Shown piece after piece: positions 1,815-64,000 of a DNA stretch of 64,000 nucleotides. The position numbers were made by a program, and so were the translations under genes. Source of the DNA: Mobula birostris (Eukaryota); the NCBI RefSeq assembly GCF_030028105.1, contig NC_092383.1, positions 86,385,921 through 86,449,920 of the forward strand. Direction: 5' to 3'. Under the pieces are notes generated by a model, which was not told the origin of the DNA, made no database searches, and was given only the letters and a program-made list of their open reading frames with translations. How positions within the stretch are numbered: position 1 is the first letter of the stretch; each line of letters opens with the position of its first letter.

Positions 1815-2760
1815 TACTGTCCTCTTATTTTTGTCTCCCCGACATGCTCTTTGTATGAGTCCTACTTTATTGCAACTTCTGCAAGTTTCACCTTTAAACC
1901 TGCATTTCTTTGGTGAATGTGAGCCCCTGACACAATGCTAACACAATTTGTTCAGCCTGGCCAGTTTGTGTTCGGATATTGCAAATTGTTTACACTAACT
2001 TTCATTCTTGACTACAATTCAATTGCATCCCTGTCTGTGGTTTCCTTTGAAACAACAATTTTAGATGTTCTGTTGAATGTGAGTTGTGCTTCAGTTAAGA
2101 GCTATTTTTGACTGCTTTCTTGTAAGATTCCACAAACTAAATAATCTTTCAGTGCATCATCAAGCCCAACATTGAGCTGATAATACTCAGATAATCTCTT
2201 CAATTCAGCCACAAACGCTGAAGTGGACTCCCCTTCTTTCTGATTCTGCAAATGAAACCTAAAGCTTTCTGTAATTGATAATAACATTGTTTCTAAATGT
2301 TCTAAATTTCTGCTGGTTTGTTTGGAGCAGTCTAAATTTCAAAGCAAACTGTATGCCTTTAAAGGCAAAGTACTCAGCAAAATTGGCACTTGTTTCTCGG
2401 TATCTATTATATTTGCTTCAAACTATTGTTGAATTAACTCAGTATACACAGTCCGATTGTCTGGTGTGGAATCAAACGAGCCCGTCTTTCTGATGTAGCC
2501 AGCTGTTTGTGCTGTTTTAAATGATAATTAGCATCTGGTTCTCACTCTTTATGAATGGATGAATTCTTCTGATTTCTGATGTTTTTAAAACTTGATTGTG
2601 TTCTCCATTCAGAAGAACATGTGCTGTGCTGCTTTTCTATTAATTTGGACCACCTCTGCACGTGCTGTGCTACAATTTCTTTTACTTGCAATGTTTTTTT
2701 ACTTCAAATCTTTTGCTGCACTTCAGCAGGTTGACAGCCATCTAACATTCATTTTAAAGA
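1815..2760 (-). mobile_element. Gypsy LTR retrotransposon gag, decayed and 3'-truncated
   Basis: SFRFHLQNQKEGESTSAFVAELKRLSEY...LKDYLVCGI gag motif; CCHC-knuckle remnant (CRFKGETCRSCNKVGLIQRAC) near 1830-1900; in-frame stops. Confidence 0.85.
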
Positions 2761-3099: not shown

Positions 3100-5292
3100 C
3101 TCAGGCATATGAATCCACAGTGTGATCGCGGGACCATCGCAGCACGAGGAGGAACGAGGGGCTCGGGAGAGCGCTGAGAGCTGGGAAGCAGCTGAGGAGC
3201 TGAGGTGAGTGTGCTTGAAAAGGAGCGTGGAGGGCAACTGAAGGATTAATCAGAGTGTTGATTAGTCGATTGGAGGAGTGAGTACTTGAGATAATTGGCA
3301 GGGACAAATATAAGGAGGGGCAACTAAAGAGGAGCGGCCAGTGTGTGAGTGGCTCAGGGTAGGAGTGGAGCTTTGAGGCTTTGGCGAGCAGAGGCTGAGG
3401 ACAAGCTTGCTCCCAGTGAGGTAAGGCCGGGTAAGTTCCTTTAATTAACTTAGGAGTAGGTAATGGAGGCAGCAGTTAGGGCAGTCGAGTGCTCCGTTTG
3501 CAGTATGTGGGAAGTCAGGGACAGCACAATTGTCCCTGATGACTACACCTGTAAAAGGTTCATCCAGCTGCATCTCCTGACAAACCGAGTTAGGGAACTG
3601 GAGCTGGAGCTGGATGAACTTCGGATCATTCCTGAGGCTGAGGCAGAAATAGACAGGAATTTCAGGGAGACAGTCACCCCTAAAAGTCAGGAGGCAGGTA
3701 GTTGGGTGACTGTCAGTAGAGGGAAGGGGAATAGACAGAAAGAGCAGAGCACCCCAGTGGCCGTTCCCATCAACAATAAGTATACCAATTTGGATACTGT
3801 TGGTGGGGGCGACCTACTGGGGACAAGTTGTAATGGTCACGTCTCCGGCACCGAATCTGGACCCTCAGCTCAGAAGGGAAGGAGGGAGTAGAGGAGAGTA
3901 GTAGTGATAGGGGATTCAATAGTTAGGGGGACAGATAAGAGGTTCTGTGGAAGAGATCGAGATCACGGATGGTCTGTTGCCTCCCTGGTACCAGGGTCTG
4001 CGATATCTCAGATCGAGTTCTCGGCCTTCTCAGGAGGGAGGGTGAGCAGCCAGATGTCGTGGTCCATGTAGGGACTAATGACGTGGATAGGAAGGAGGAG
4101 GAGGTCCTGCAAAGAGAGTTTAGAGAGTAAGGTGCAAAGTTGAAGGACAGGACCTCCAGGGTTGCAATCTCAGGATTGCTACCCATGCCACATGCTAGTG
4201 AGGCTAGAAATAGGAAGATAATGCAGCTAAATACGTGGCTGAGGAGATGGTGCAGGAGGGAGGGCTTCATGTTTCTGGACAATTGGGCTTTGTTCCAGGG
4301 AGGGTGGGATCTGTTCCAATGGGACGGTTTGCACCTGAACAGGAGGGGGACTAACATCCTTGTGGAACCTTGGTTTTCAAGGGATATTGATGATCTGATT
4401 AAGAAAAATAAAGAAGTGTATAGCAGGTATAGGCAACAAGGAACAAATGAGTTACTTGAAGAGTATAGAAAATGTAAGAAAATACGAAAGAAGGAAATCA
4501 GGAAGGCAAAAAGAAGACATGAGGTTGCTTTGGCAGATAATGTGAAGGTAAACCCGAAGGGTTTCTACAAGTATATTAAGAGTAAAAGGATAGTAAGGGA
4601 CAAAATTGGTCCCCTAGAAGATCAAAGACCAATGAGAAAAATGGGCCAGAAAATGTTAGATAGAATTTAATGCAGCCAAGTGTGAAGTGTTCCATTTTGG
4701 AAGGACAAATCAAAGTAGGACATACACAGTAAATGGTAGGGCACTGAGGAGTGTAGAGGAACAAAGGGGTCTAGGAGTTCAGATGCATAATTCCCTGAAA
4801 GTGGTATCACAGGTAGACAGGGTTGTAAAGAAGGCTTTTGGCATCCTGGCATTCATAAATTAAAGTATTGAGTATAGGAGTTGGAATGTTATGGTGAGGT
4901 TGCATAAGACATAGGTGAGGCCAAATTTGGAGTATTGTGTACAGTTCTGGTCACCTAACTATAGGAAGGATATCAGTAAGATTGAAAGAGTGCAGAAAAG
5001 ATTTACGAGAATGTTGCCGGGTCTTCAGGAGTCGAGTTACAGGGAAAGATTGAACAGGTTAGGACTTTATTCTTTGGAGCATAGAAGAATGAGGGGAAAT
5101 TTGATAGAGGTTTACAAAATTATGAGGGGTGTAGACAGAGTAGATGTGAGTAGGCTCTTTCCACTTAGATTAGGAGAGATAAATATGAGAGGACATGGCT
5201 TTAGAGTGAAAGGGGAAAGGTTTAGGGGGAACTTCTTCTCTCAGAGAGTGGTGGGAGTGTGGAATGAGCTGCCATCTGACATGGTAAATGAC
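3100..5292 (+). mobile_element. CR1 LINE with 5' UTR, ORF1 (zinc-finger-like plus SGNH esterase) and internally deleted ORF2
   Basis: ORF1 from 3463 VECSVCSMWE...YTCK; GDSIVRG and DGLHLN esterase motifs; stops at about 3889 and 4128; jumps to ORF2 pieces near 4360 and 4630; HLEYC-type RT end 4915-5295. Confidence 0.92.
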
Positions 5293-11740: not shown

Positions 11741-12049
11741 ACAGTGTCACGATGTACGCTGGCAATGTTGGAACCCAATTGCACAGGAAATCCAGACTCC
11801 AATGTGGAGACGGAGACCAAAGTTTATTCATAGGAATTCCAACAGAATGTCAATGGCTGAGCGGCAACTGCAAGACTGAACGCTCTCAAATTGGACCCCG
11901 CTATTAGCGCTAATCAGGCATCCGCTTAAGTAATACAAGTAATATGGAATTCCTGAGCCTATCAAAATGATGGAACGCACACCATGATGGACTCTTTATT
12001 GTCACCAGATATTTTAACCACGTGAACCTTAAGTCAGTGCTCCCCAGAT

Positions 12050-14035
12050 TCCATCAGAACATGGACTTTGCAACGAGAGGGGAGAATGTGTTGGACCTTG
12101 TTTACACAAACATTCCCGACCCCACCTCAGCTACTCAGACCACGTCTCTGTTATGCTAATCCCAGCGTACAGACAGCACGTCAGGCGCGCCAGACCTGTT
12201 CAGAAGCAGGTGAAAACCTGGCCAACAGGAGCCATCTCTGCTCTTCAAGACTGCTTTGAGCACACTGACTGGCACATGTTCAGGGAGGCTGCAACTGACG
12301 GCGACTCTACCAGCTTAGAGGAGTACACGGCATCAGTGACTCAGCAAGTGCGTCGATGACGTCACTGTGGCCAAGACCATCACTACATGCGCTAACCAGA
12401 AGCCATGGATGACCACAGAGGTGCGTGCGCTGCTGAGGACCCGTGACTCCACCTTCAGAGCAGGCGACAGGGCAGCCCTAACAACAGCAAGGGCCAAACT
12501 GTCCCGGGCCATCAAAAAGGCAAAGCGTGCACACGCCCAGCGAATCCACAGCCACTTCCAGGATAGGGGCGGCACGTGGCACCTGTGGAAAGGCATTCAG
12601 AACATCACCAACTACAAGACAACACCACCTGCCTGTGCTGGTGATGCCTCCCTCCCAGATGCGTTGAATAACTTCTATGCTCGTTTTGAGGTGAAAAATG
12701 ACATGGCAGTGAGGAAGACCACTCCTCCTCCGAACAACCAGGTGCTGTGTCTTACCTTGGCTGATGTGAGGAGAACCCTGTGCAGGGTCAACCCATGGAA
12801 GGCTGCTGGACCAGACAATATTCCTGGCAAAGTGCTTAGAGTATGTGAAGACCAGCTAGCTGAGATTCTCACTGACATCTTCAACATCTCCGAGCAGCAC
12901 CGTCGTTCCTACGTGCTTCAAGGCTGCCACCATCGTCCCCGTGCCGAAGAAGTCTTCAGTGTCCTGCCTCAACAACTACCATCCCGTCACACTCACAACC
13001 ATCATCATGAAGTGTTTCGAGAGGCTCGTCATGGGGCACATCAAGACCCTGCTGCCCCCCTCACTGGTCCCCCTGCAGTTCATGTACCGTCCCAACCGTT
13101 CAACAGACGATCCTATTGCCATCACCCTCCACCTGGACAAAAAAGACACTTACGTTCGAATGCTGTTCATAGACTTCAGTTCAGCATTCAACACAATCAT
13201 TCCTCAGAAACTGATTGGAAAGCTGAGCCTACTGGGCCTGAACACCTCCCTCTGCAACTGGATCCTAGACTTCCTGACTGGGAGATCTCAGTCCGGATTG
13301 GAAGCAGCACCTCCAACACCATCACACTGAGCACGGGGGCCCCCCAGGGCTGTGTGCTCAGTCCACTGCTGTTCACTCTGCTGACCCACGACTGTGCTGC
13401 AACACACAACTCGAACCAAATCATCAAATTTGCCAATGACACGGCCGTGGTGGGTCTCATCAGCAAGAATTATGAGTCAGCTTACAGAGAGGAGGTGCAG
13501 CAGCTAACAGACTGGTGCAGAGCCAACAACCTGTCCCTGAATGTGAACAAAACAAAAGAGTTTGTTGTTGACTTCAGGCTTCAGGAGGACACGGAGCGAC
13601 CACTCTCTGCTGAACATGAATGACTCCTCCGTAGAGATCGGTAACAGCACCAAATTTCTTAGTGTTCACATGGCGGTGAATCTCACCTGGTCCCTCAACA
13701 CCAGCTCCAGAGCAAAGAAAGCCCAGCAGCGTCTCTACTTTCTGCGAAGGATGAGAAAAGTCCATCTCTCACCTCCCGTCCTCACCACAGTCTACAGAGG
13801 TTGTATTGAGAACATCCTGAACAGCTGCATCACTGCCTGGTTCGGAAATTGCACCATCTTGGATCGCAAGACCCTTCAGCGGATAGTGAGGTCAGCTGGG
13901 TAGATCATGGGGATCTCTCTTCCCACCATTACCGACATTTACACCTCACGCTGCATCCGTAAAGCAAACAGCATTATGAAGGACTCCATGCACCCTTCAT
14001 ACAAACTCTTCTCCCTCCTGCCATCGAGCTGCCAT
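12050..14035 (+). mobile_element. Rex1/Babar-clade LINE ORF2, frameshifted
   Basis: NQKPWM...[61 protein letters not shown] motifs across ORFs 12367-13903. Confidence 0.9.
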
Positions 14036-17296: not shown

Positions 17297-17425
17297 CTGA
17301 AACGTGGTGACAACATACACTTCATGCTCCTGTGTGAAGTTCCAACAACACAATATCCAGCACACATCAGTCATTCAGTTGTACTCCATTGATCATCATA
17401 AAGATTCAAACCCTCCAGCACTTAC

Positions 17426-17557
17426 CCATGCTGTTGACTTCAATCACATTTCTGCAGGTGCTGACATTGTTGGAGATGGACATACTGACCACTTCACTGG
17501 ACTTCTCTCCATTAATATTTGAGGCTTTGCAATAATACAGATAATTTTTGTATTCAA
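17426..17557 (-). pseudogene. C2-type Ig exon, 3' half only (cut by the duplication breakpoint)
   Basis: LYYCKASNINGEKSSEVVSMSISNNVSTCRNVIEVNSM|GTAAGT; 5' half replaced by the start of unit 2. Confidence 0.85.
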
Positions 17558-19514
17558 GTACACTTTTTATGCAACAGGATAATGCAGGAGGTTTTCTCAA
17601 TGAAAAGGCAAGGTCTTTTGTTTCTTATATCTCTTGATCGCTCTGCCTCTGAGAAAAATAACTCAATCTTTCTTCAATACATGTTCACCACATTCTGGGA
17701 GAAGAAATCTTTCCTAATCCCAGTCTTATCTGTTTCACCCTTCAGATTATTTCTAAGATTCCAAGCTTTCTTACTTACTGTCCGTTACACCACTGGTGTT
17801 TCGGGCAGCAATGAAGGTCTCCTATCTCTGGCAGTGTTCGGCGCTTCCTTCATTGTGTCAGTAGATTCCTCTCAGTTTTCACTGCTTTCAGTCATGCAAG
17901 TCTCGGGTAGAGATGAGCAATACCGTCAAACTCTGATGGAGAAGGATTTTTCATTCCTGTTTCCATGACAATTTTGTTTAACCAGTCAGGCTTGTCAGTC
18001 CTGAGCGAATCCTCCGAACCTGTAGGATTGGTGGACCACTCTAAGTCTGGCCTCTACCCTTTGACCTGTTTGGCATGGGTGACCCGATGAACTGCCAAAG
18101 AATAACAGCCAACATAGCTCTCTGGGTCATTGAGGCATGCAAGCCTCCAAATTTGTGGTTCTCTTGGAGGTAGGACTCCACAGACCATCCTATATTCCCT
18201 GGCATTTGAAGCATCCTACCTGCATCAGTTCAGCACATATCACCCTACTAAAATATTGCTCAGTTCTATGTGATCACATCTCAACCTGCTGAACTCCATC
18301 AAATATAAACCCAATCAACCAAATCCCTGATCTTGTGTCACTTGTGGCATTCCAGAAATCAGTCTGGTGATCCTTCGCTTGCCTTCTTCCTTAACAAGAA
18401 CATCTTTCATCGGACCAAATCTGCTGACAATGCTGGTGGCCCAAGACTGAGGCTCGAGTCAATGTCTGATCGATTTAAGCTTCAGGCCAGAAAGGAAAGA
18501 TCGGGTATGGGCCAAATCGAGGCGGTGAGTCCTGGGCACAAGAGCGTGTCAAAACAGCAAGAGCCCCTACCATCCAAGCCATGCTCTCTTCTTGCTGCTG
18601 TCGGTACAAAGGAGTTGCAGGGGGCTTAGATCCCGTATCACCAGGTTCTGGACCAGTTAATATCTTCAACCTGTAGGCTCCTGAAACATCATGGATAAAT
18701 TCACTCACCAACACTGAACTGATTCTGCAACCAATGGACTCACTTTCAAGGATTCTACAGTTCATCTTCTCAGTATTTATTTGTTTATCTCCTTCACCTT
18801 TCCCCTTTCCCTCTCTCACCATTCTCCTAACCTGCCCATGACCTCCCCCTGGCGAGCCTCCACTTTCCCTGCTTTCCATGGCCTTCTGTCCCCTATCAGA
18901 TTTCCCCTCCTCCAGCCCTTTATCGCTTTCACCAATTGACTTTCCAGCTCTTTACTTCACCCCTCCCACTCTCTCAATTTCACCTTGTACTTCTCCATCT
19001 CCTCCCACCGACTTTCTTAGGTTGACTTCTAATCTCCTTTCCTTTCCAGTCCTGATGAAGGGTCTCAGCCCGAAACGATGACTGATGACTCTTTTCAATA
19101 GGTGTTCCCTGGCCTTCTGAGTACCTCCAGCAATTTGTGTGTAGTGCTTTGCTTTCCAGCATCTGCAGGTATTCGCTTGTTATTTATTTATTTATTTATT
19201 TATTTATTATTTGTTTCTTTTGTATTTGCACAATTTGTATTATTTTGCACATTGATTGTCTGACCATTTTTGATTGTGTGTAGTTTTACATTGAGTCTGT
19301 TGTATTCATTTGTATCTACTGCGAATGCCTGCAAGAAAATGGATCTCGGGGTAGTATATGGTGACAAAAACTTAATTTTCTTTCAACTTTGAAGTGATTT
19401 ATCTTGGAAGGACTATCTTAATGAATGGCCAGAAATATTACCAGATGAGATACATTCACACCCAGCCAGCGAGAGTCAGATCAGAGACAGGAGACCCTGT
19501 GCTGAGAGACTCAC

Positions 19515-19548: not shown

Positions 19549-19677
19549 CTGAAACGTGGTGACAACATACACTTCATGCTCCTGTGTGAAGTTCCAACAA
19601 CACAATATCCAGCACACATCAGTCATTCAGTTGTACTCCATTGACCATCATAAAGAATCAAACCCTGCACCACTTAC

Positions 19678-19998
19678 CCATGCTGTTGACTTCAATCACA
19701 TTTCTGCAGGTGCTGACACTGTTGGAGATGGACACATTGACCATTTCACTGGACTTTGTTCCATTAACATTTGAGGCTTTGCAATAATAGAGATCTTTTT
19801 TGTATTTTAATGGTTGGCAATGTAGATCCAGTGTATTGTTATCGGAGATCTTTGAATCCGCAGATGGGGTCCTTTCGTACCATGAGTACTGAATGGGAAG
19901 GGATCCATGGACAGACTCACAGGACACTGACACGGAGTTCCCACAACTTGAGCCACTTGTTGGTGGAGAAAATTGAAGCAAAGGAACAGACACAGGTT
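19678..19998 (-). CDS. Intact C2-type Ig domain exon
   Basis: 321 nt, phase 1-1; ttttccacag acceptor, GTAAGT donor; EPVSVP..VSCES..GSLPIQYSWY..YYCKASN, FCRL/PECAM-like C2 pattern. Confidence 0.9.
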
Positions 19999-20714
19999 CT
20001 GTGGAAAACAATCAGTAAACATCTGAAAATCAAACACAGTAAAGATTTCAGCAGTTCTGTATCTCAACCAGAACCCACAAGTTTGGAATCTCAGCAGCTC
20101 ATCTGCTCCATTGTGTCTCTGCATCTTCCCATCTGTCTGAACTTCCATGTCTGTCAGTATCGCCGGAGACAGAAGGATTCCTGATCAGAACAACAGTGGT
20201 GACACTGAGAATGTGTCAGTGTGATAATCTGGGATTCAGTCTCTCTCAGCCCCAAGGAGACAGTCATAAGTGAGAGCAAACATTGTGACTTTGCAATGGC
20301 AATATTTGTGTGTGTCCTAGAAAACTCACCATAATTTGAAAGCAGGAAATTGTCAGATACGTACAAGATGAATGGTGACTTTAAGGAGAAAGTGTAATTG
20401 TGATTTGATTTCAGTGACCTACAGCAGCAAGGGAACCCATTAGTAATGATAGCTGTATGAAGACAACAAGGAATGATGTGAGATCATAGACCATAATACC
20501 ATGAAACATAGGAGCAGAATTAGGCCATTCTGTCCATTGACTCTGCTCCACGATTCCATCATGGCTGATTTATTATCGTTCTAAATCTATTCTCCGGCCT
20601 TCTTCCTGTATCCTTTGATGCTCTTACTAATCAAGAGCCTATGAAATTCCATTTTAAATATACCCAATGACTTAACCTCCACAGCTGCCTGTCACAATGA
20701 ATTCCACAGATTTT

Positions 20715-57870: not shown

Positions 57871-58351
57871 TGTTATGATTTGCAGCTTCAAAACAGTGAA
57901 CGAATTCAAAGCAAACAACAGAGCTGGGAAATGAGAATCTTAGACTGTGTTTTTACTTTAAGTGAGGCGCACATGTATCACATAGAAACATAGAAAATAG
58001 GTGCAGGAGTAGGCCATTCGGCCCTTCGAGCCTGCACCGCCATTTATTATGATCATGGCTGATCATCCAACTCAGAACCCCGCCCCAGCCTTCCCTCCAT
58101 ACCCCCTGACCCCCGTAGCCACAAGGGCCATATCTAACTCCCTCTGAAATATAGCCAATGAACTGGCCTCAACTGTTTCCTGTGGCAGAGAATTCCACAC
58201 TTTCACCATGTTGGTGTCATGACATATCAATTCATATCATTTACTTATGAACCATATTTAATTACTTAAACAAACAAGAATACTTAATCAAACAATATTT
58301 ACAATATTACTCGAATATTTACAATATTACTGAAATATTAAATACACAACA
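57871..58351 (-). mobile_element. Gypsy 3' LTR, interrupted by a CR1 3' end (57981-58208, minus)
   Basis: TG...CA ends; similar to the LTR at 2775-3098; a purine-rich PPT-like AAGGAG directly precedes it on the minus strand. Confidence 0.8.
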
Positions 58352-58600
58352 CTCCTTGCAACTTAAGTATAAATTCCATCTGAATAGAAAATGCATCTCA
58401 CTATATATACAGTATACTATATGAAGGATTTCATACTCTTGGCATATCATCCTTCCTGAAACAGGGGATCACTCTGCTTAGCAGATGAGACTTGTAGCTG
58501 TGAAACCATCTTAGGTTCTGGGGCCTCCTCCACAGTGGGTTGTAAGAGCTGTTGACCCTGAGACTGCAGGAAGTGGTTCTGACTGCGATGGACATCTTTC
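58352..58600 (-). mobile_element. Gypsy pol C-terminal tail and 3' non-coding region
   Basis: REERCPSQSEPLPAVS... Pro/Ser/Thr-rich post-integrase tail leading into PPT and LTR; family assignment by recollection. Confidence 0.65.
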
Positions 58601-58685
58601 TTCTCTTTCCCATTTCTTCTTCTAGTTCATGCATTTAGCTCACTGGAGTATTCTCTTATTAATCCTTCTATTGCTCCCTTTACAA
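58600..58685 (-). pseudogene. RBM25: RBM25 retro-fragment, distal piece
   Basis: VKGAIEGLIREYSSELNA then LEEEMGK, compared with recalled human RBM25 IKGAIEVLIREYSSELNA and KLEEEKGK. Confidence 0.85.
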
Positions 58686-61546
58686 AAGGACGGGTTGCAC
58701 TTGAATCCTAGGGGGACCAATATCCTGGCAGGGAGATTAGCGGGGGCTACTGAGGTGACTTTAAACTAGAATGGTTGGGGGGTGGGAATCAAATTAAAGA
58801 GGCTAGGCGAGAGGAGGTTAGTTCACAACAGGGGGATGGGAACCAGCGCAGAGAGACAGAGGGGTGTAAAGTGAGGGTAGAAGCAAAAAGTACTATGGAG
58901 AAAAGTAAAAGTGGCAGGCCGACAAATCCAGGGCAAGCATTAAAAAGGGCCACTTTTCAGCATAATTGTATAAGGGCTAAGAGAGTTGTAAAAGAGCGCC
59001 TGAAGGCTTTGTGTGTCAATGCAAGGAGCATTCGTAATAAAGTGGATGAATTGAAAGTGCAGATTGTTATTAATGATTATGATATAGTTGGGATCACAGA
59101 GACATGGCTCCAGGGTGACCAGGGATGGGAGCTCAACGTTCAGGGATATTCAATATTCAGGAGGGATAGACATGAAGGAAGGGGAGGTGGGGTGGCGTTG
59201 CTGGTTAAAGAAGAGATTAACGCAATAGAAAGGAAGGACATAAGCCGGGAAGATGTGGAATCGATATGGGTAGAGCTGCGTAACACTAAGGGGCAGATGA
59301 CGCTGGTGGGAGTTGTGTACAGGCCACCTAACAGTAGTAGTGAGGTCGGAGATGGTATTAAACAGGAAATTAGAAATGTGTGCAATAGAGGAACAGCAGT
59401 TATAATGGGTGACTTCAATCTACATGTAGATTGGGTGAACCAAATTGGTAAAGGTGCTGAGGAAGGGGATTTCTTGGAATGTATGCGGGATGGTTTTTTG
59501 AACCAACATGTTGAGGAACCAACTAGAGAGCAGGCTATTCTGGACTGGGTTTTGAGCAATGAGGAAGGGTTAATTAGCAATCTTGTCGTGAGAGGCCCCT
59601 TGGGTAAGAGTGACCATAATATGGTGGAATTCTTCATTAAGATGGAGAGTGACATAGTTAATTCAGAAACAAAGGTTCTGAACTTAAAGAGGGGTAACTT
59701 TGAAGGTATGAGACGTGAATTAGCTAAGATAGACTGGCAAATGACACTTAAAGGATTGACGGTGGATATGCAATGGCAAGCATTTAAAGGTTGCATGGAT
59801 GAACTACAACAATTGTTCATCCCAGTTTGGCAAAAGAATAAATCAAGGAAGGTAGTGCACCCGTGGCTGACAAGAGAAATTAGGGATAGTATCAATTCCA
59901 AAGAAGAAGCATACAAATTAGCCAGAGAAAGTGGCTCACCTGAGGACTGGGAGAAATTCAGAGTTCAGCAGAGGAGGACAAAGGGTTTAATTAGGAAGGG
60001 GAAAAAAGATTATGAGAGAAAACTGGCAGGGAACATAAAAACGGACTGTAAAAGCTTTTATAGATATGTAAAAAGGAAAAGACTGGTAAAGACAAATGTA
60101 GGTCCCCTGCAGACAGAAACAGGTGAATTGATTATGGGGAGCAAGGACATGGCAGACCAACTGAATAATTACTTTGGTTCTGTCTTCACTAAGGAGGACA
60201 TGAATAATCTTCCAGAAATAGTAGGGGACAGAGGGTCCAGCGAGATGGAGGAACTGAGCGAAATACATGTTAGTAGGGAAGTGGTGTTAGGTAAATTGAA
60301 GGGATTGAAGGCAGATAAATCCCCAGGGCCAGATGGTCTGCATCCCAGAGTGCTTAAGGAAGTAGCCCAAGAAATAGTGGATGCATTAGTGATAATTTTT
60401 CAAAACTAGTTAGATTCTGGACTAGTTCCTGAGGATTGGAGGGTGGCTAATGTAACTCCACTTTTTAAAAAAGGAGGGAGAGAGAAACCGGGGAATCATA
60501 GACCGGTTAGCCTAACGTCGGTAGTGGGGAAACTGCTGGAGTCAGTTATCAAGGATGTGATAACAGCACACTTGGAAAGCGGTGAAATGATCGGACAATG
60601 TCAGCATGGATTTGTGAAAGGAAAATCATGTCTGACGAATCTCATAGAATTTTTTGAGGATGTAACTAGTAGAGTGGAAAGGGGAAAACCTGTGGATGTG
60701 GTATATTTGGATTTTCAGAAGGCTTTTGACAAGGTCCCACACAGGAGATTAGTGTGCAAACTTAAAGCACATGGTATTGGGGGTAAGGTATTGGTGTGGG
60801 TGGAGAGTTGGTTAGCAGACAGGAAGCAAAGAGTGGGAATAAACGGGACCTTTTCAGAATGGCAGGCGGTGACTAGTGGGGTACTGCAAGGCTCAGTGCT
60901 GGGACCCCAGTTGTTTACAATATATATTAATGACTTGGAGGTACTACTGCAGTTGTACAAGTCCTTGGTGAGACCCCACCTGGAGTATTGTGTGCAGTTT
61001 TGGTCCCCTAATCTGAGGAAAGACATCCTTGCCATAGAGGGAGTACAAAGAAGGTTCACCAGATTGATTCCTGGGATGGCAGGACTTTCATATGAAGAAA
61101 GACTGGATGAACTGGGCTTGTACTCGTTGGAATTTAGGAGATTGAGGGGGGATCCGATTGAAACGTATAAGATCCTAAAGGGATTGGACAGGCTAGATGC
61201 AGGAAGATTGTTCCCGATGTTGGGTAAGTCCAGAACGAGGGGCCACAGTTTGAGGATAAAGGGGAAGCCTTTTAGGACCGAGATTAGGAAAAACTTCTTC
61301 ACACAGAGAGTGGTGAATCTGTGGAATTCTCTGCCACAGGAAGCAGTTGAGGCCAGTTCATTGGCTATATTTAAGAGGGAGTTAGATATGGCCCTTGTGG
61401 CTACGGGGGTCAGGGGATATGGAGGGAAGTCTGGGGCGGGGTTCTGAGTTGGATGATCAGCCATGAGCATAATACATGGCGGTGCAGGATCGAAGGGCCG
61501 AATGGCCTACTCCTGCACCTATTTTCTATGTTTCTATGTTTCTATG
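58686..61546 (+). mobile_element. Young CR1 (ORF1 end, ORF2 with a premature TAG at 60407-60409 and a deletion near 60937), 7-bp TSD TTTACAA
   Basis: 544-aa endonuclease ORF, RT motifs, (tttctatg)n tail; TTTACAA at 58679-58685 and 61547-61553. Confidence 0.95.
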
Positions 61547-62008
61547 TTTACAACCTGATCTGCCCTCTAGGTTTCCTCATCCACAACCTGTGGCAAATCC
61601 TGTTTTTGTCTCTCCTTTGACTCTATTTCTTTTTGGCCTTCCTTTCATCGATCTGGTCTTTGGTCTTTGGTCTTTGCATCTACTTTTACAAGCAATTTTT
61701 TCTCCTACTTGACATTCCTGCAACAACCATAAAACACACAGAGTAGGTTTCAGTTCTTTACAGGCACAAAAGCCAAATGCTTGCAACTTTCCTGAAGATC
61801 CTTAAACTCTCCTCCAGCTTAAAACCAAGCCACATTTCACAAGTATCTGACTGATTAACTTATCAGAAGCTTTCTCAGACATGTTGCCTATAAAAACTGT
61901 TGTAGTCCAACTAGTGCTTTCATCATTTTCACTCTTCCTCTGAGCAGCGTGGCCCTTCCTTACAGGAATATGCTTTCCAATCAGAGGCATAGAAGTTGGA
62001 ACCAACAC
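61547..62008 (-). pseudogene. RBM25: RBM25 retro-fragment, proximal piece covering the RRM
   Basis: VLVPT..GKH..ENDE..TTTVFIGNMSEKASDKLISQILVKCGLVLSWRRV*GSSGKLQAFGFC..LLVKVDAKTK..DEET*RADQVV; no introns; stops and frameshifts. Confidence 0.92.
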
Positions 62009-62057
62009 ATGTTTGTTCTCAGTTAGGCAATGGTTTATGATGTATGTCAAAGAGGCA

Positions 62058-62518
62058 GTCGTGGCATTATCTAGTACCTTTCTTAATTTGGTTTCAGTCG
62101 GCTTCATTGCAAGGGATGTGGCATGCAATTGGTGGATGGATCTCCAATCGAGTAGCAGTTGTCTCAGCAAATGAAGTCCCCACAATGCTGGTCCTTCTGT
62201 TTTTACCACATACAAGCTCAATGTGGCTCACAGTTCTGCATGTCATTCCCACAGGAGTTATCCTTTTACCAGTGTAAGTTCTCAGTTGAATATTTGCAGG
62301 CTTCACTTTGGTATCTTTCAAATGCTGTTTAAACTCATTTTGTGGGATGACTGAAACAGCTGAACTAGTGCCTAATTCCATTTTACTAATTTGTCGTTTA
62401 CTCCTGGTGTAAGCCACATTGCTTGTTTGTTGTTAATTTTCATACAGTAAAGCTCAAGGCTACACAGTCCTGTGTCACTCTCATCATAATCAGATTTTTC
62501 ATCTACAGCATGCAGATT
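62058..62518 (-). mobile_element. Gypsy gag end and aspartic protease region, decayed; resumes at 63979-64000
   Basis: NLHAVDE, KMELGTSSAVSVIP (degenerate D-T-G-S motif), LRTYTG, LYVVKTEGPALWG, LRKVLD. Confidence 0.85.
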
Positions 62519-63978
62519 TGAAACATAGAAAATAGGTGCAGGAGTAGGCCATTCGGCCCTTCGACCCTGCACCGCCATTTATTATGATCATGGCTGATCA
62601 TCCAACTCAGAGCCCTGCACCAGCCTTCCCTCCATACCCTCTGATCCCCCTAGCCACAAGGGCCATATCTAACTCCCTCTTAAATATAGCCAATGAACTG
62701 GCCTCAACTGTTTCCTGTGGCAGAGAATTCCACAGATTCACCACTCTCTGTGTGAAGAAGTTTTTCCTAATCTCAGTCCTAAAAGGCTTCCCCTTTATCC
62801 TCAAACTGTGACCCCTCGTTCTGGACTTCCCCAGCATCGGGAACAATCTTCTTGCATTTAGCCTGTCCAATCCCTTTAGGATTTTATACGTTTCAATCAG
62901 ATCCCCCCTCAATCTTCTAAATTTCAACGAGTACAAGCCTAGTTCATCCAGTCTTTCTTCATATGAAAGTCCTGCCATCCCAGGGATCAATCTGGTGAAC
63001 CTTCTTTGTACTCCCTCTATGGCAAGGATGTCTTTCCTCAGATTAGGGGACCAAAACTGCACACAATACTCCAGGTGTGGTCTCAGCAAGGCCTTGCACA
63101 ACTGCAGTAGTACCTCCCTGCTCCTGTACTCGAATCCTCTCCCTATAAATGCCAGCATACCATTCGCCTTTTTCACCGCCTGCTGTACCTGCATGCCCAC
63201 TTTCAATGACTGGTGTATAATGACACCCAGGTCTCGTTGCACCTCCCCTTTTCCTAATCGGCCACCATTCAGATAATAATCTGTTTTCCTATTTTTGCCA
63301 CCAAAGTGGATAACTTCACATTTATCCACATTAAATTGAATCTGCCATGAATTTGCCCACTCACCCAACCTATCCAAGTCACCCTGCATCCTCTTAGCAT
63401 CCTCCCCTCCTCACAGCTAACACTGCCGCTCAGCTTCGTGTCATCCGCAAACTTGGAGATGCTGCATTTAATTCCCTCATCCAAGTCATTAATATATATT
63501 GTAAACAACTGGGGTCCCAGCACTGAGCCTTGCAGTACCCCACTAGTCACCGCCTGCCATTCTGAAAAGGTCCCGTTTATTCCCACTCTTTGCTTCCTGT
63601 CTGCTAACCAATTCTCTATCCACATCAATACCTTACCCCCAATACCATGTGCTTTAAGTTTGCACACTAATCTCCTGTGTGGGACCTTGTCAAAAGCCTT
63701 TTGAAAATCCAAATATACCACATCCACTGGTTCTCCCCTATCCACTCTACTAGTTACATCCTCAAAAAATTCTGAGATTCGTCAGACATGATTTTCCTTT
63801 CACAAATCCATGCTGACGTTGTCCGATGATTTCACCACTTTCCAAATGTGCTGTTATCACATCTTTGATAACTGACTCCAGCAGTTTCCCCACCACCGAC
63901 GTTAGCCTAACTGGTCTATAATTCCCTGGTTTCTCTCTCCCTTTTTTTTTTTAAAAAGTGGGGTTACATTAGCCACCC
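62519..63978 (-). mobile_element. Young 5'-truncated CR1 inserted in the Gypsy gag
   Basis: RT ORFs 62607-63745; the flanks rejoin as gcactaatctgcatg (STNLH) with about a 2-bp overlap. Confidence 0.95.
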
Positions 63979-64000
63979 TTAGTGCTTTTTCGAAGCTGCA

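Follow-up and report, generated by a model that had tools for sequence, protein, structure and literature searches.

A decayed Ty3/Gypsy-like element family of Mobula birostris in which spliced host RBM25 mRNA very probably replaced the reverse transcriptase, RNase H and integrase region

The 64,000-nt stretch of Mobula birostris DNA analysed here (the window) ends in a decayed, non-autonomous LTR element copy, which in our judgment is best explained, with high confidence in the explanation as a whole, as a Ty3/Gypsy element carrying spliced host RBM25 mRNA in place of its RT-RNase H-integrase region. Under the history that we propose, an RBM25 mRNA would have been co-packaged with element RNA, and reverse transcription likely joined the two by changing template twice, each time at a short microhomology. 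The hybrid probably had a single origin by copying error and then underwent a burst, with about 2,000 sites likely reached through mobilisation in trans by pol-bearing relatives. The purine-rich 3' part may later have suffered deletions, and the window locus would then have received three CR1 insertions and a five-fold tandem duplication. If so, one LTR-element capture event gave rise to a sub-family that ranks among the larger ones in a vertebrate genome, a scale of copy number that had gone unnoticed in the preliminary description of this DNA.

The window element and the host RBM25 gene

In the order of the element, 5' to 3', the features are:

Window-equivalent 65863-66093 (in copy L021), 1.9-2.1 kb beyond the window, minus strand: 5' LTR, from LTR ends and a PBS-like site
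63979..64000, minus: 3' part of gag, running on beyond the window (blastn to pol-type copy L112)
62520..63978, minus: young 5'-truncated CR1-type LINE, inserted in gag
62067..62518, minus: end of gag and aspartic protease, frameshifted, 78% to pol-type copies L112 and L119
62060..62066, minus: 5' switch point, 7-nt microhomology, found both in pol and where host exon 3 ends
62009..62056, minus: 48-nt RBM25 cassette exon (host C1:154450900-154450947, AG/GT ends)
61547..62008, minus: spliced RBM25 exons e4, e5, e6 and start of e7 (RRM region)
58686..61546, plus: young CR1-type LINE (endonuclease and RT) in RBM25 exon e7, exact ends
58597..58685, minus: remaining RBM25 piece, e7 and then internal deletions, 94% to host e7
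58597-58605, minus: 3' switch point, 9-nt microhomology GAGAAGAAA, from the junction rows
58367..58596, minus: pol tail (end of the integrase frame and 3' untranslated part), 70-76% to pol-type copies
58352..58366, minus: decayed polypurine tract, its position matching a purine run in other copies
57871..58351, minus: 3' LTR, about 245 bp, TG...CA, with a short 3' fragment of CR1 dividing it at about 57981-58215

This arrangement upholds the minus-strand order first proposed (gag-protease, RBM25, pol tail, polypurine tract, 3' LTR), and the 5' LTR that was expected beyond 64 kb has been located. The three CR1 inserts originally reported are present, although the second ends near 63978, after which the sequence is gag again. 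The protease assignment comes from tblastn of a gag-pol protein (P0121, protease at residues 273-359), whose residues 237-437 match 62067..62518. The large CR1 insert at 58686-61546 matches Pfam Exo_endo_phos (7e-12) and RVT_1 (1e-22) and is flanked by a 7-bp duplication; in place of its excision in silico, natural copies lacking it were used, and all 15 dispersed copies L006-L020 are uninterrupted at that site. Aligned with a pol-type relative, the window matches up to 62061 and then again from 58606, so that RT, RNase H and integrase are absent. As the preliminary description held, pol has been replaced rather than interrupted. C18 carries five copies that are nearly identical and represent segmental duplicates.

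The resemblance to RBM25 noted in the preliminary description holds up under search. With RBM25 protein P0038 as tblastn query, window positions 62029-61549 (minus strand) match residues 70-236 at E 2e-34, and the match picks up again beyond the CR1 at 58686-58594 (residues 235-271). In the better-preserved copy L015:1660-2109 the match to RBM25 reaches E 2e-61 and 74%, and that to Pfam RRM_1 reaches 1.3e-10. A Pfam search of the window's own five short RBM25 and protease frames gave no match, and a PDB sequence search with the window frames gave a weak RRM match (E 0.031) and no RBM25. The RBM25 sequence itself stands as first described, at a length of about 600 nt rather than 540, and the 50 nt once set aside as unassigned filler are really RBM25, comprising the 48-nt cassette exon and 10 nt of the preceding exon. 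The cassette-exon peptide is also present in a shark protein (P0122).

A C-terminal RBM25 query located the host gene on C1, where exons lie 2-8.5 kb apart; a search of the genome for the PWI family led to two other genes, neither of them RBM25. Fragments of the element family occur 37-49 kb upstream of exon 2 of RBM25. Introns are present in the host gene at every captured junction and in none of the copies, which bears out the suspected intron loss, and the separate host exons are 78-90% identical in DNA to window positions 61547..62008. Splicing was scored at a cut-off of at least 23 of 30 matching positions in 37 rows (35 copies and two window pieces). The spliced form reached this cut-off at e4/e5 in 35 rows, at e5/e6 and e6/e7 in 34 each and at cassette/e4 in 30; in none of the 37 did the intron-retaining form fit better.

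Switch points and the replaced pol segment

The captured mRNA spans about 1.07 kb, from the end of exon 3 to the start of exon 10 with the cassette exon included, and stands in for a pol segment of about 2.28 kb (RT-RNase H-integrase), as homology to L112 ends at its position 2968 and restarts near 5250. The 5' heptamer reads TGCCACA in most copies. Shared runs of 7 and 9 nt have probabilities of 6.7e-4 and 5.3e-5, respectively, at random joints. Host sequence begins at the identical base in 70 of 99 copies, and among these 99 none begins more than 3 nt earlier or extends beyond base 31 of exon 10. The RBM25 fragment has neither a polyA tail nor a flanking target duplication, and together with microhomology at both ends this supports capture by template switching, as initially suggested.

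These same features weigh against a processed RBM25 pseudogene made by a LINE that landed in a Gypsy element, with flanking deletions taking out pol. CR1-type LINEs are plentiful and young here, but the expected polyA tail and duplication are missing, microhomology marks both ends, the 3' end of the mRNA was not found, and the C-terminal RBM25 query matches the host gene only. This origin is largely refuted, and we regard it as very improbable. Still less credible is that an element residing in the RBM25 gene was read through and spliced, or that the hybrid spread by segmental duplication at the DNA level. The family fragments upstream of RBM25 and the C18 duplicates would fit such events; however, both switch points lie within exons, away from splice sites, and similarity among dispersed copies is 77-80%, each having its own target duplication and flanks unrelated to those of the others. 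For the dispersed copies these routes are largely refuted.

Family size and transposition

Template-switch capture followed by retrotransposition is consistent with the structure of the wider family. A motif for the hybrid junction has 621 matches and one for the pol-type junction 1,266 (controls, 0 in both cases), and hybrids account for roughly one in three family members at the replacement site. Since the junction motif is matched by 24 of 69 copies chosen independently of it, the 621 matches correspond to a hybrid total of about 1,800; a first look had yielded 2,651 candidate copies. The hybrid therefore numbers at least 621 copies and probably about 2,000 (range about 1,800-2,700), and many carry both junctions with distinct target duplications, as the preliminary description anticipated for a mobilised chimera. 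The family was also found in DNA runs of three other organisms; no RNA run was listed as carrying it.

Paired LTRs with TG...CA ends, a PBS-like site after the 5' LTR and a polypurine tract before the 3' LTR frame the element. For the autonomous form, P0121 gives a pol order of protease-RT-RNase H-integrase by Pfam, with no BEL/Pao-specific family among the matches listed, and pol-type copies such as L112 align with it over residues 33-1130. Layout, pol order and a 5-bp target duplication point to the Ty3/Gypsy class. Of 12 copies whose two ends were located, 7 have the duplication, matched at 4 or more of 5 positions, vs 5 of 132 cross pairs, and it differs from copy to copy; 5 of the 12 show no clear duplication, and none has one of 4 or 6 bp. 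That of the window copy is suggestive (4/5, assuming loss of the first LTR bases). The tree is star-like, internal branches contributing 4.7% of its length, and contains no supported subfamilies. One copy contains RT and then switches back into the hybrid, as expected from co-packaging.

Decay, cargo and precedents

The copies decay neutrally. Across all events dN/dS is 1.04 for RBM25 and 0.94 for gag-pro, and for variants common to at least eight copies 0.77 and 0.70, on small counts, with a star tree giving low power for detecting selection on the source element. None of the 99 copies examined, out of about 2,000, is without stops and indels, even in samples that, as top matches, are biased toward well-preserved copies. 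Neither the intact frame nor the purifying selection of a functional retrogene or domesticated element was found among them. The copies seen are all damaged and none is young, so the capture steps are read from fossils.

The RBM25 cargo was probably a passenger, as judged from sequence. A passenger offers nothing beyond a 1-in-3 chance for the in-frame 5' junction and the stop-free majority frame. In the window, frame 61805-62227 crosses the junction without a stop, gag-protease and RBM25 being in frame; 42 of 84 copies retain a stop-free 50-codon frame over it, a stop is the commonest codon in none of 208 columns of the RBM25 part, and the original frame is preserved in 32 of 67 3' length variants. 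These observations, and the hybrids' share of the family, would suit a cargo of the same origin that raised the copying rate through a Gag-protease-RRM fusion protein or through host-like RNA shielding the element from silencing. Yet every class except the smallest has a dN/dS of about 1, and the frame counts are non-independent, as deletions are common to several copies. Moreover, 7 of 20 pol-type copies have a plain deletion rejoining at the hybrid's tail site, so short forms spread without cargo. No hybrid protein appears in the best 150 of 360 representatives or in 21 near-length public matches; P0139, considered as one, is an ordinary model of RBM25. We hold such a benefit to be improbable. 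A shade less so is that an in-frame Gag-protease-RBM25 fusion equipping the particle with a host RNA-binding domain, or an essential-gene sequence costly to silence, drove the hybrid to its third of the family, with small RNAs from the 2,000 copies possibly regulating RBM25. The family allows the effect of a host cargo on retroelement success to be tested.

The mechanism, LTR-mediated retroposition, is already published, with retrocopies reported for fly and mosquito as well as zebrafish, chicken, mouse and human (Tan et al. 2016, PMC5131818). As in the passages of that paper used here, a piece of mRNA, without polyA, takes the place of some of the internal ORF sequence, microsimilarity marks both switch points (7 and 9 nt here, a median of 6 bp in fly), and the unit was recopied as a non-autonomous element with switch points common to copies. 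The fly cases there comprise nine retrocopies at 18 insertion sites, whereas the present family has about 2,000 copies, is old and is common to several species, a scale exceeding the animal cases in those passages. Maize Bs1 (one to five copies, three parent genes) and human HERV-K/FAM8A1, presented as a single case (both via PMC5131818), likewise hold host exons within an LTR element, with switch points common to copies. In the portions considered of the report on Pseudocercospora (10.1101/550798), a hAT transposon amplified a histone H3 transcript (784 sequences in 471 elements), which similarly involves a spliced housekeeping transcript and hundreds of dead copies shared by related species; that, however, is a RIP-inactivated fungal DNA transposon, and here a vertebrate LTR element has more copies. 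Plutella Pxyfem, as excerpted from PMC9674220, consists of 11 retrocopies of PxyMasc, also made by LTR template switch, whose silencing RNAs are directed at the parent gene. Among the literature listings and abstracts searched there was no paper on an RBM25-carrying family, and a prior description elsewhere, such as a Repbase or Dfam entry, is possible.

About 2,000 RBM25-like sequences at ~88% identity may mislead annotation and read mapping, and insertions common to species should make good phylogenetic markers. The copies also preserve, in fossil form, an old isoform of the host mRNA, in that they retain the cassette exon and an ancestral residue since changed in the host.

Window copy and joints between Gypsy and RBM25 sequence

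The element and its RBM25 content in the window are real. The locus (G000:C18:86385921-86449920, in a genome of 4.0 Gb) comprises the following features:

62515-61922, minus strand: gag-pol match, aligned to residues 237-437 of P0121, a fish gag-pol
62029-61549, minus strand: first part of the RBM25 match, residues 70-236 of P0038 (RBM25), E 2e-34
58686-58594, minus strand: second part of the RBM25 match, beyond a CR1 insert, P0038 residues 235-271
58351-57871, minus strand: 3' LTR, divided by a short CR1 piece
65863-66093 (window-equivalent, outside the window): 5' LTR, which the preliminary description expected beyond 64 kb

The domain order of P0121 (protease, RT, RNaseH, integrase) is that of Ty3/Gypsy elements, and the CR1 insertion site is uninterrupted in 15/15 dispersed copies checked. 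The CR1-type LINE itself (58686-61546, plus strand) is young, with long open frames of 551 and 345 aa, and nearby CR1 copies are 95-97% alike to it. The window lies within a ~105 kb tandem duplication of five units (G000:C18 86.23-86.66 Mb), 98.5-99.9% identical over the 3.5 kb tested; the large CR1 carries an internal deletion in two of these units and is without it in the other three. A second gag fragment at 1833-2449 (minus) resembles P0121 residues 1-217. An Ig-domain exon at 19658-20011 (minus) and 17406-17624 (minus), with a Pfam Ig_3 match below cut-off (E 2e-4), sits within an internal repeat of 2.25 kb (15.3-19.8 kb) and likely represents a tandemly amplified Ig-superfamily gene.

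A protease-region query recovered 29 loci besides itself, which continue into RT (21), RBM25 (7) or neither (1). Relative to L112, a copy carrying pol (pol-type), Gypsy copies carrying RBM25 (hybrids) show homology to position 2968 and again from ~5250, so that ~2.28 kb of pol, judged against L112, has been replaced, as the reported loss of pol would require. The longest hybrids hold host mRNA positions 147-1218 (~1.07 kb), a span that opens with the last 10 nt of exon 3 and closes with the first 28 nt of exon 10. Neither joint coincides with a splice site; pol and host have 7 nt in common at the 5' joint (P 6.7e-4 for such a run at a random joint) and 9 nt at the 3' joint (P 5.3e-5). In the junction rows the 5' joint is in frame and the 3' joint departs from the pol frame. 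We pooled 99 copies from four samplings (35 + 6 + 30 + 28 loci), after excluding the five duplicates on C18, two other duplicate loci and the host locus itself; the set may still contain one duplicate pair, L153 and L154. In 70 of these copies the host sequence begins at position 147, and in none does it begin before 144 or end past 1221.

Parent gene and loss of introns

The sole gene found with a C-terminal RBM25 query lies at C1:154.44-154.49 Mb (3 exon matches, 11 candidates), and its exons have AG/GT ends and can be joined into a single open frame. In 35 dispersed copies these exons are contiguous, end to end. Across 37 junction rows (the 35 copies and two window pieces), spliced junctions were matched at ≥23/30 in 35 rows for e4/e5, 34 for e5/e6 and 34 for e6/e7, and an intron-retaining junction was the better fit in none, which upholds the claim of a contiguous sequence derived from an intron-split parent. 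Together with pol replacement and microhomology at the joints, this intron loss supports the capture of RBM25 by a Gypsy element proposed in the preliminary description. The ~50 nt regarded there as unassigned filler proved instead to be a 48-nt in-frame cassette exon from host RBM25 intron 3. Its peptide forms the start of an annotated shark RBM25 isoform (P0122, Heptranchias perlo), a match that would point to a cartilaginous-fish host. The captured mRNA skips an additional small host exon (30 nt, AG/GT ends, L041:6025-6054, C1:154446025-154446054). A single contig links this exon to the 48-nt one; it comes from run X20, which is marked 'RNA? (probably DNA)'. Upstream of the coding exons of host RBM25 lie fragments of this LTR family (L034-L037, C1:154378702-154406559).

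Spread and age of the hybrid family

A 21-nt motif search allowing at most one mismatch returned 621 matches to the hybrid junction vs 1,266 to the pol-type junction, and none to reversed control motifs. Since the motif is present in 24/69 copies chosen independently of it, ~1,800 hybrid copies are estimated; first-look candidates for the RBM25 piece numbered 2,651. Both outer ends were located in 12 of 35 copies, and 5-bp target duplications, scored at ≥4/5, flank seven of these, all differing (cross pairs, 5/132). Such distinct target sites, in copies sharing both junctions, bear out the suggestion that the chimera was mobilised. The purine-rich 3' cargo is partly lost in many copies; among 49, it is short in 29, as in the window copy, medium in 17 and long in 3. 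In three other organisms (D, E and F), 12,000-14,000 DNA contigs pile up on one copy with the RBM25 part covered, and the 3' deletions are shared; among the contigs listed, those of F bridge both joints and those of D the 3' joint.

Median LTR-pair divergence K is 0.23 (n = 12), with hybrids and pol-type copies alike (0.20-0.28 in 4), and divergence is 0.119 between copy and host and 0.166 between copies. A tree of 79 copies is star-like, with internal branches making up 4.7% of its length and no supported clades. Over 208 codons, the host differs from the commonest copy codon by 17 synonymous and 8 other differences, six of the latter being CpG sites with weak majorities. Because the copies match the host at six places where it differs from Heptranchias, and retain at codon 245 the alanine of Heptranchias where the host has serine, the captured gene would be this lineage's own RBM25, probably spread soon after capture. 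A functional retrogene was rejected: dN/dS among copies is ~1 (RBM25 1.04, gag-protease 0.94), and 0/99 copies are free of stops and indels. For widely shared variants, dN/dS is 0.77 in RBM25 and 0.70 in gag-protease, on small counts.

Mechanism, cargo and known systems

The fossil copies and the model outlined by Tan et al. 2016 (PMC5131818) suggest how the hybrid most likely arose. RBM25 mRNA would have been packaged together with Gypsy RNA; reverse transcriptase would have jumped to it at one microhomology and returned at the other; and the resulting hybrid, retaining LTRs, PBS, PPT and gag-protease, would have been copied by pol-bearing relatives. One copy on C23 (L192:4867-7690) comprises protease and RT and then returns to the protease end and full RBM25 cargo, a structure that would fit recombination of co-packaged pol-type and hybrid RNA. 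Plain deletions rejoining the same tail site are found in 7/20 pol-type copies (L114, L116, L117, L121, L123, L125 and L126); these cargo-free forms rejoin the pol tail at the purine-rich site of the RBM25 3' joint, possibly a recombination hotspot. Given such cargo-free deletions, the RBM25 cargo looks like a passenger, though it may have benefited the source element, as a star-like tree is blind to selection before the burst.

Four of five features tested for LTR-mediated retrocopies were found, the fifth concerning transcription; a LINE pseudogene was rejected on its own features. The mechanism is a known one operating at unusual scale, and scale is what distinguishes the family from the cases compared. 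Among the papers listed by literature searches, none concerned this RBM25-bearing Gypsy family. The family is far larger than the fly retrocopies reported by Tan et al. (nine retrocopies, 18 sites), Bs1 as described in that paper (one to five copies; PMC5131818) or Pxyfem as reported (11 copies; PMC9674220). A fungal DNA transposon is described with 784 histone sequences (10.1101/550798), vs ~1,800 hybrid copies here.
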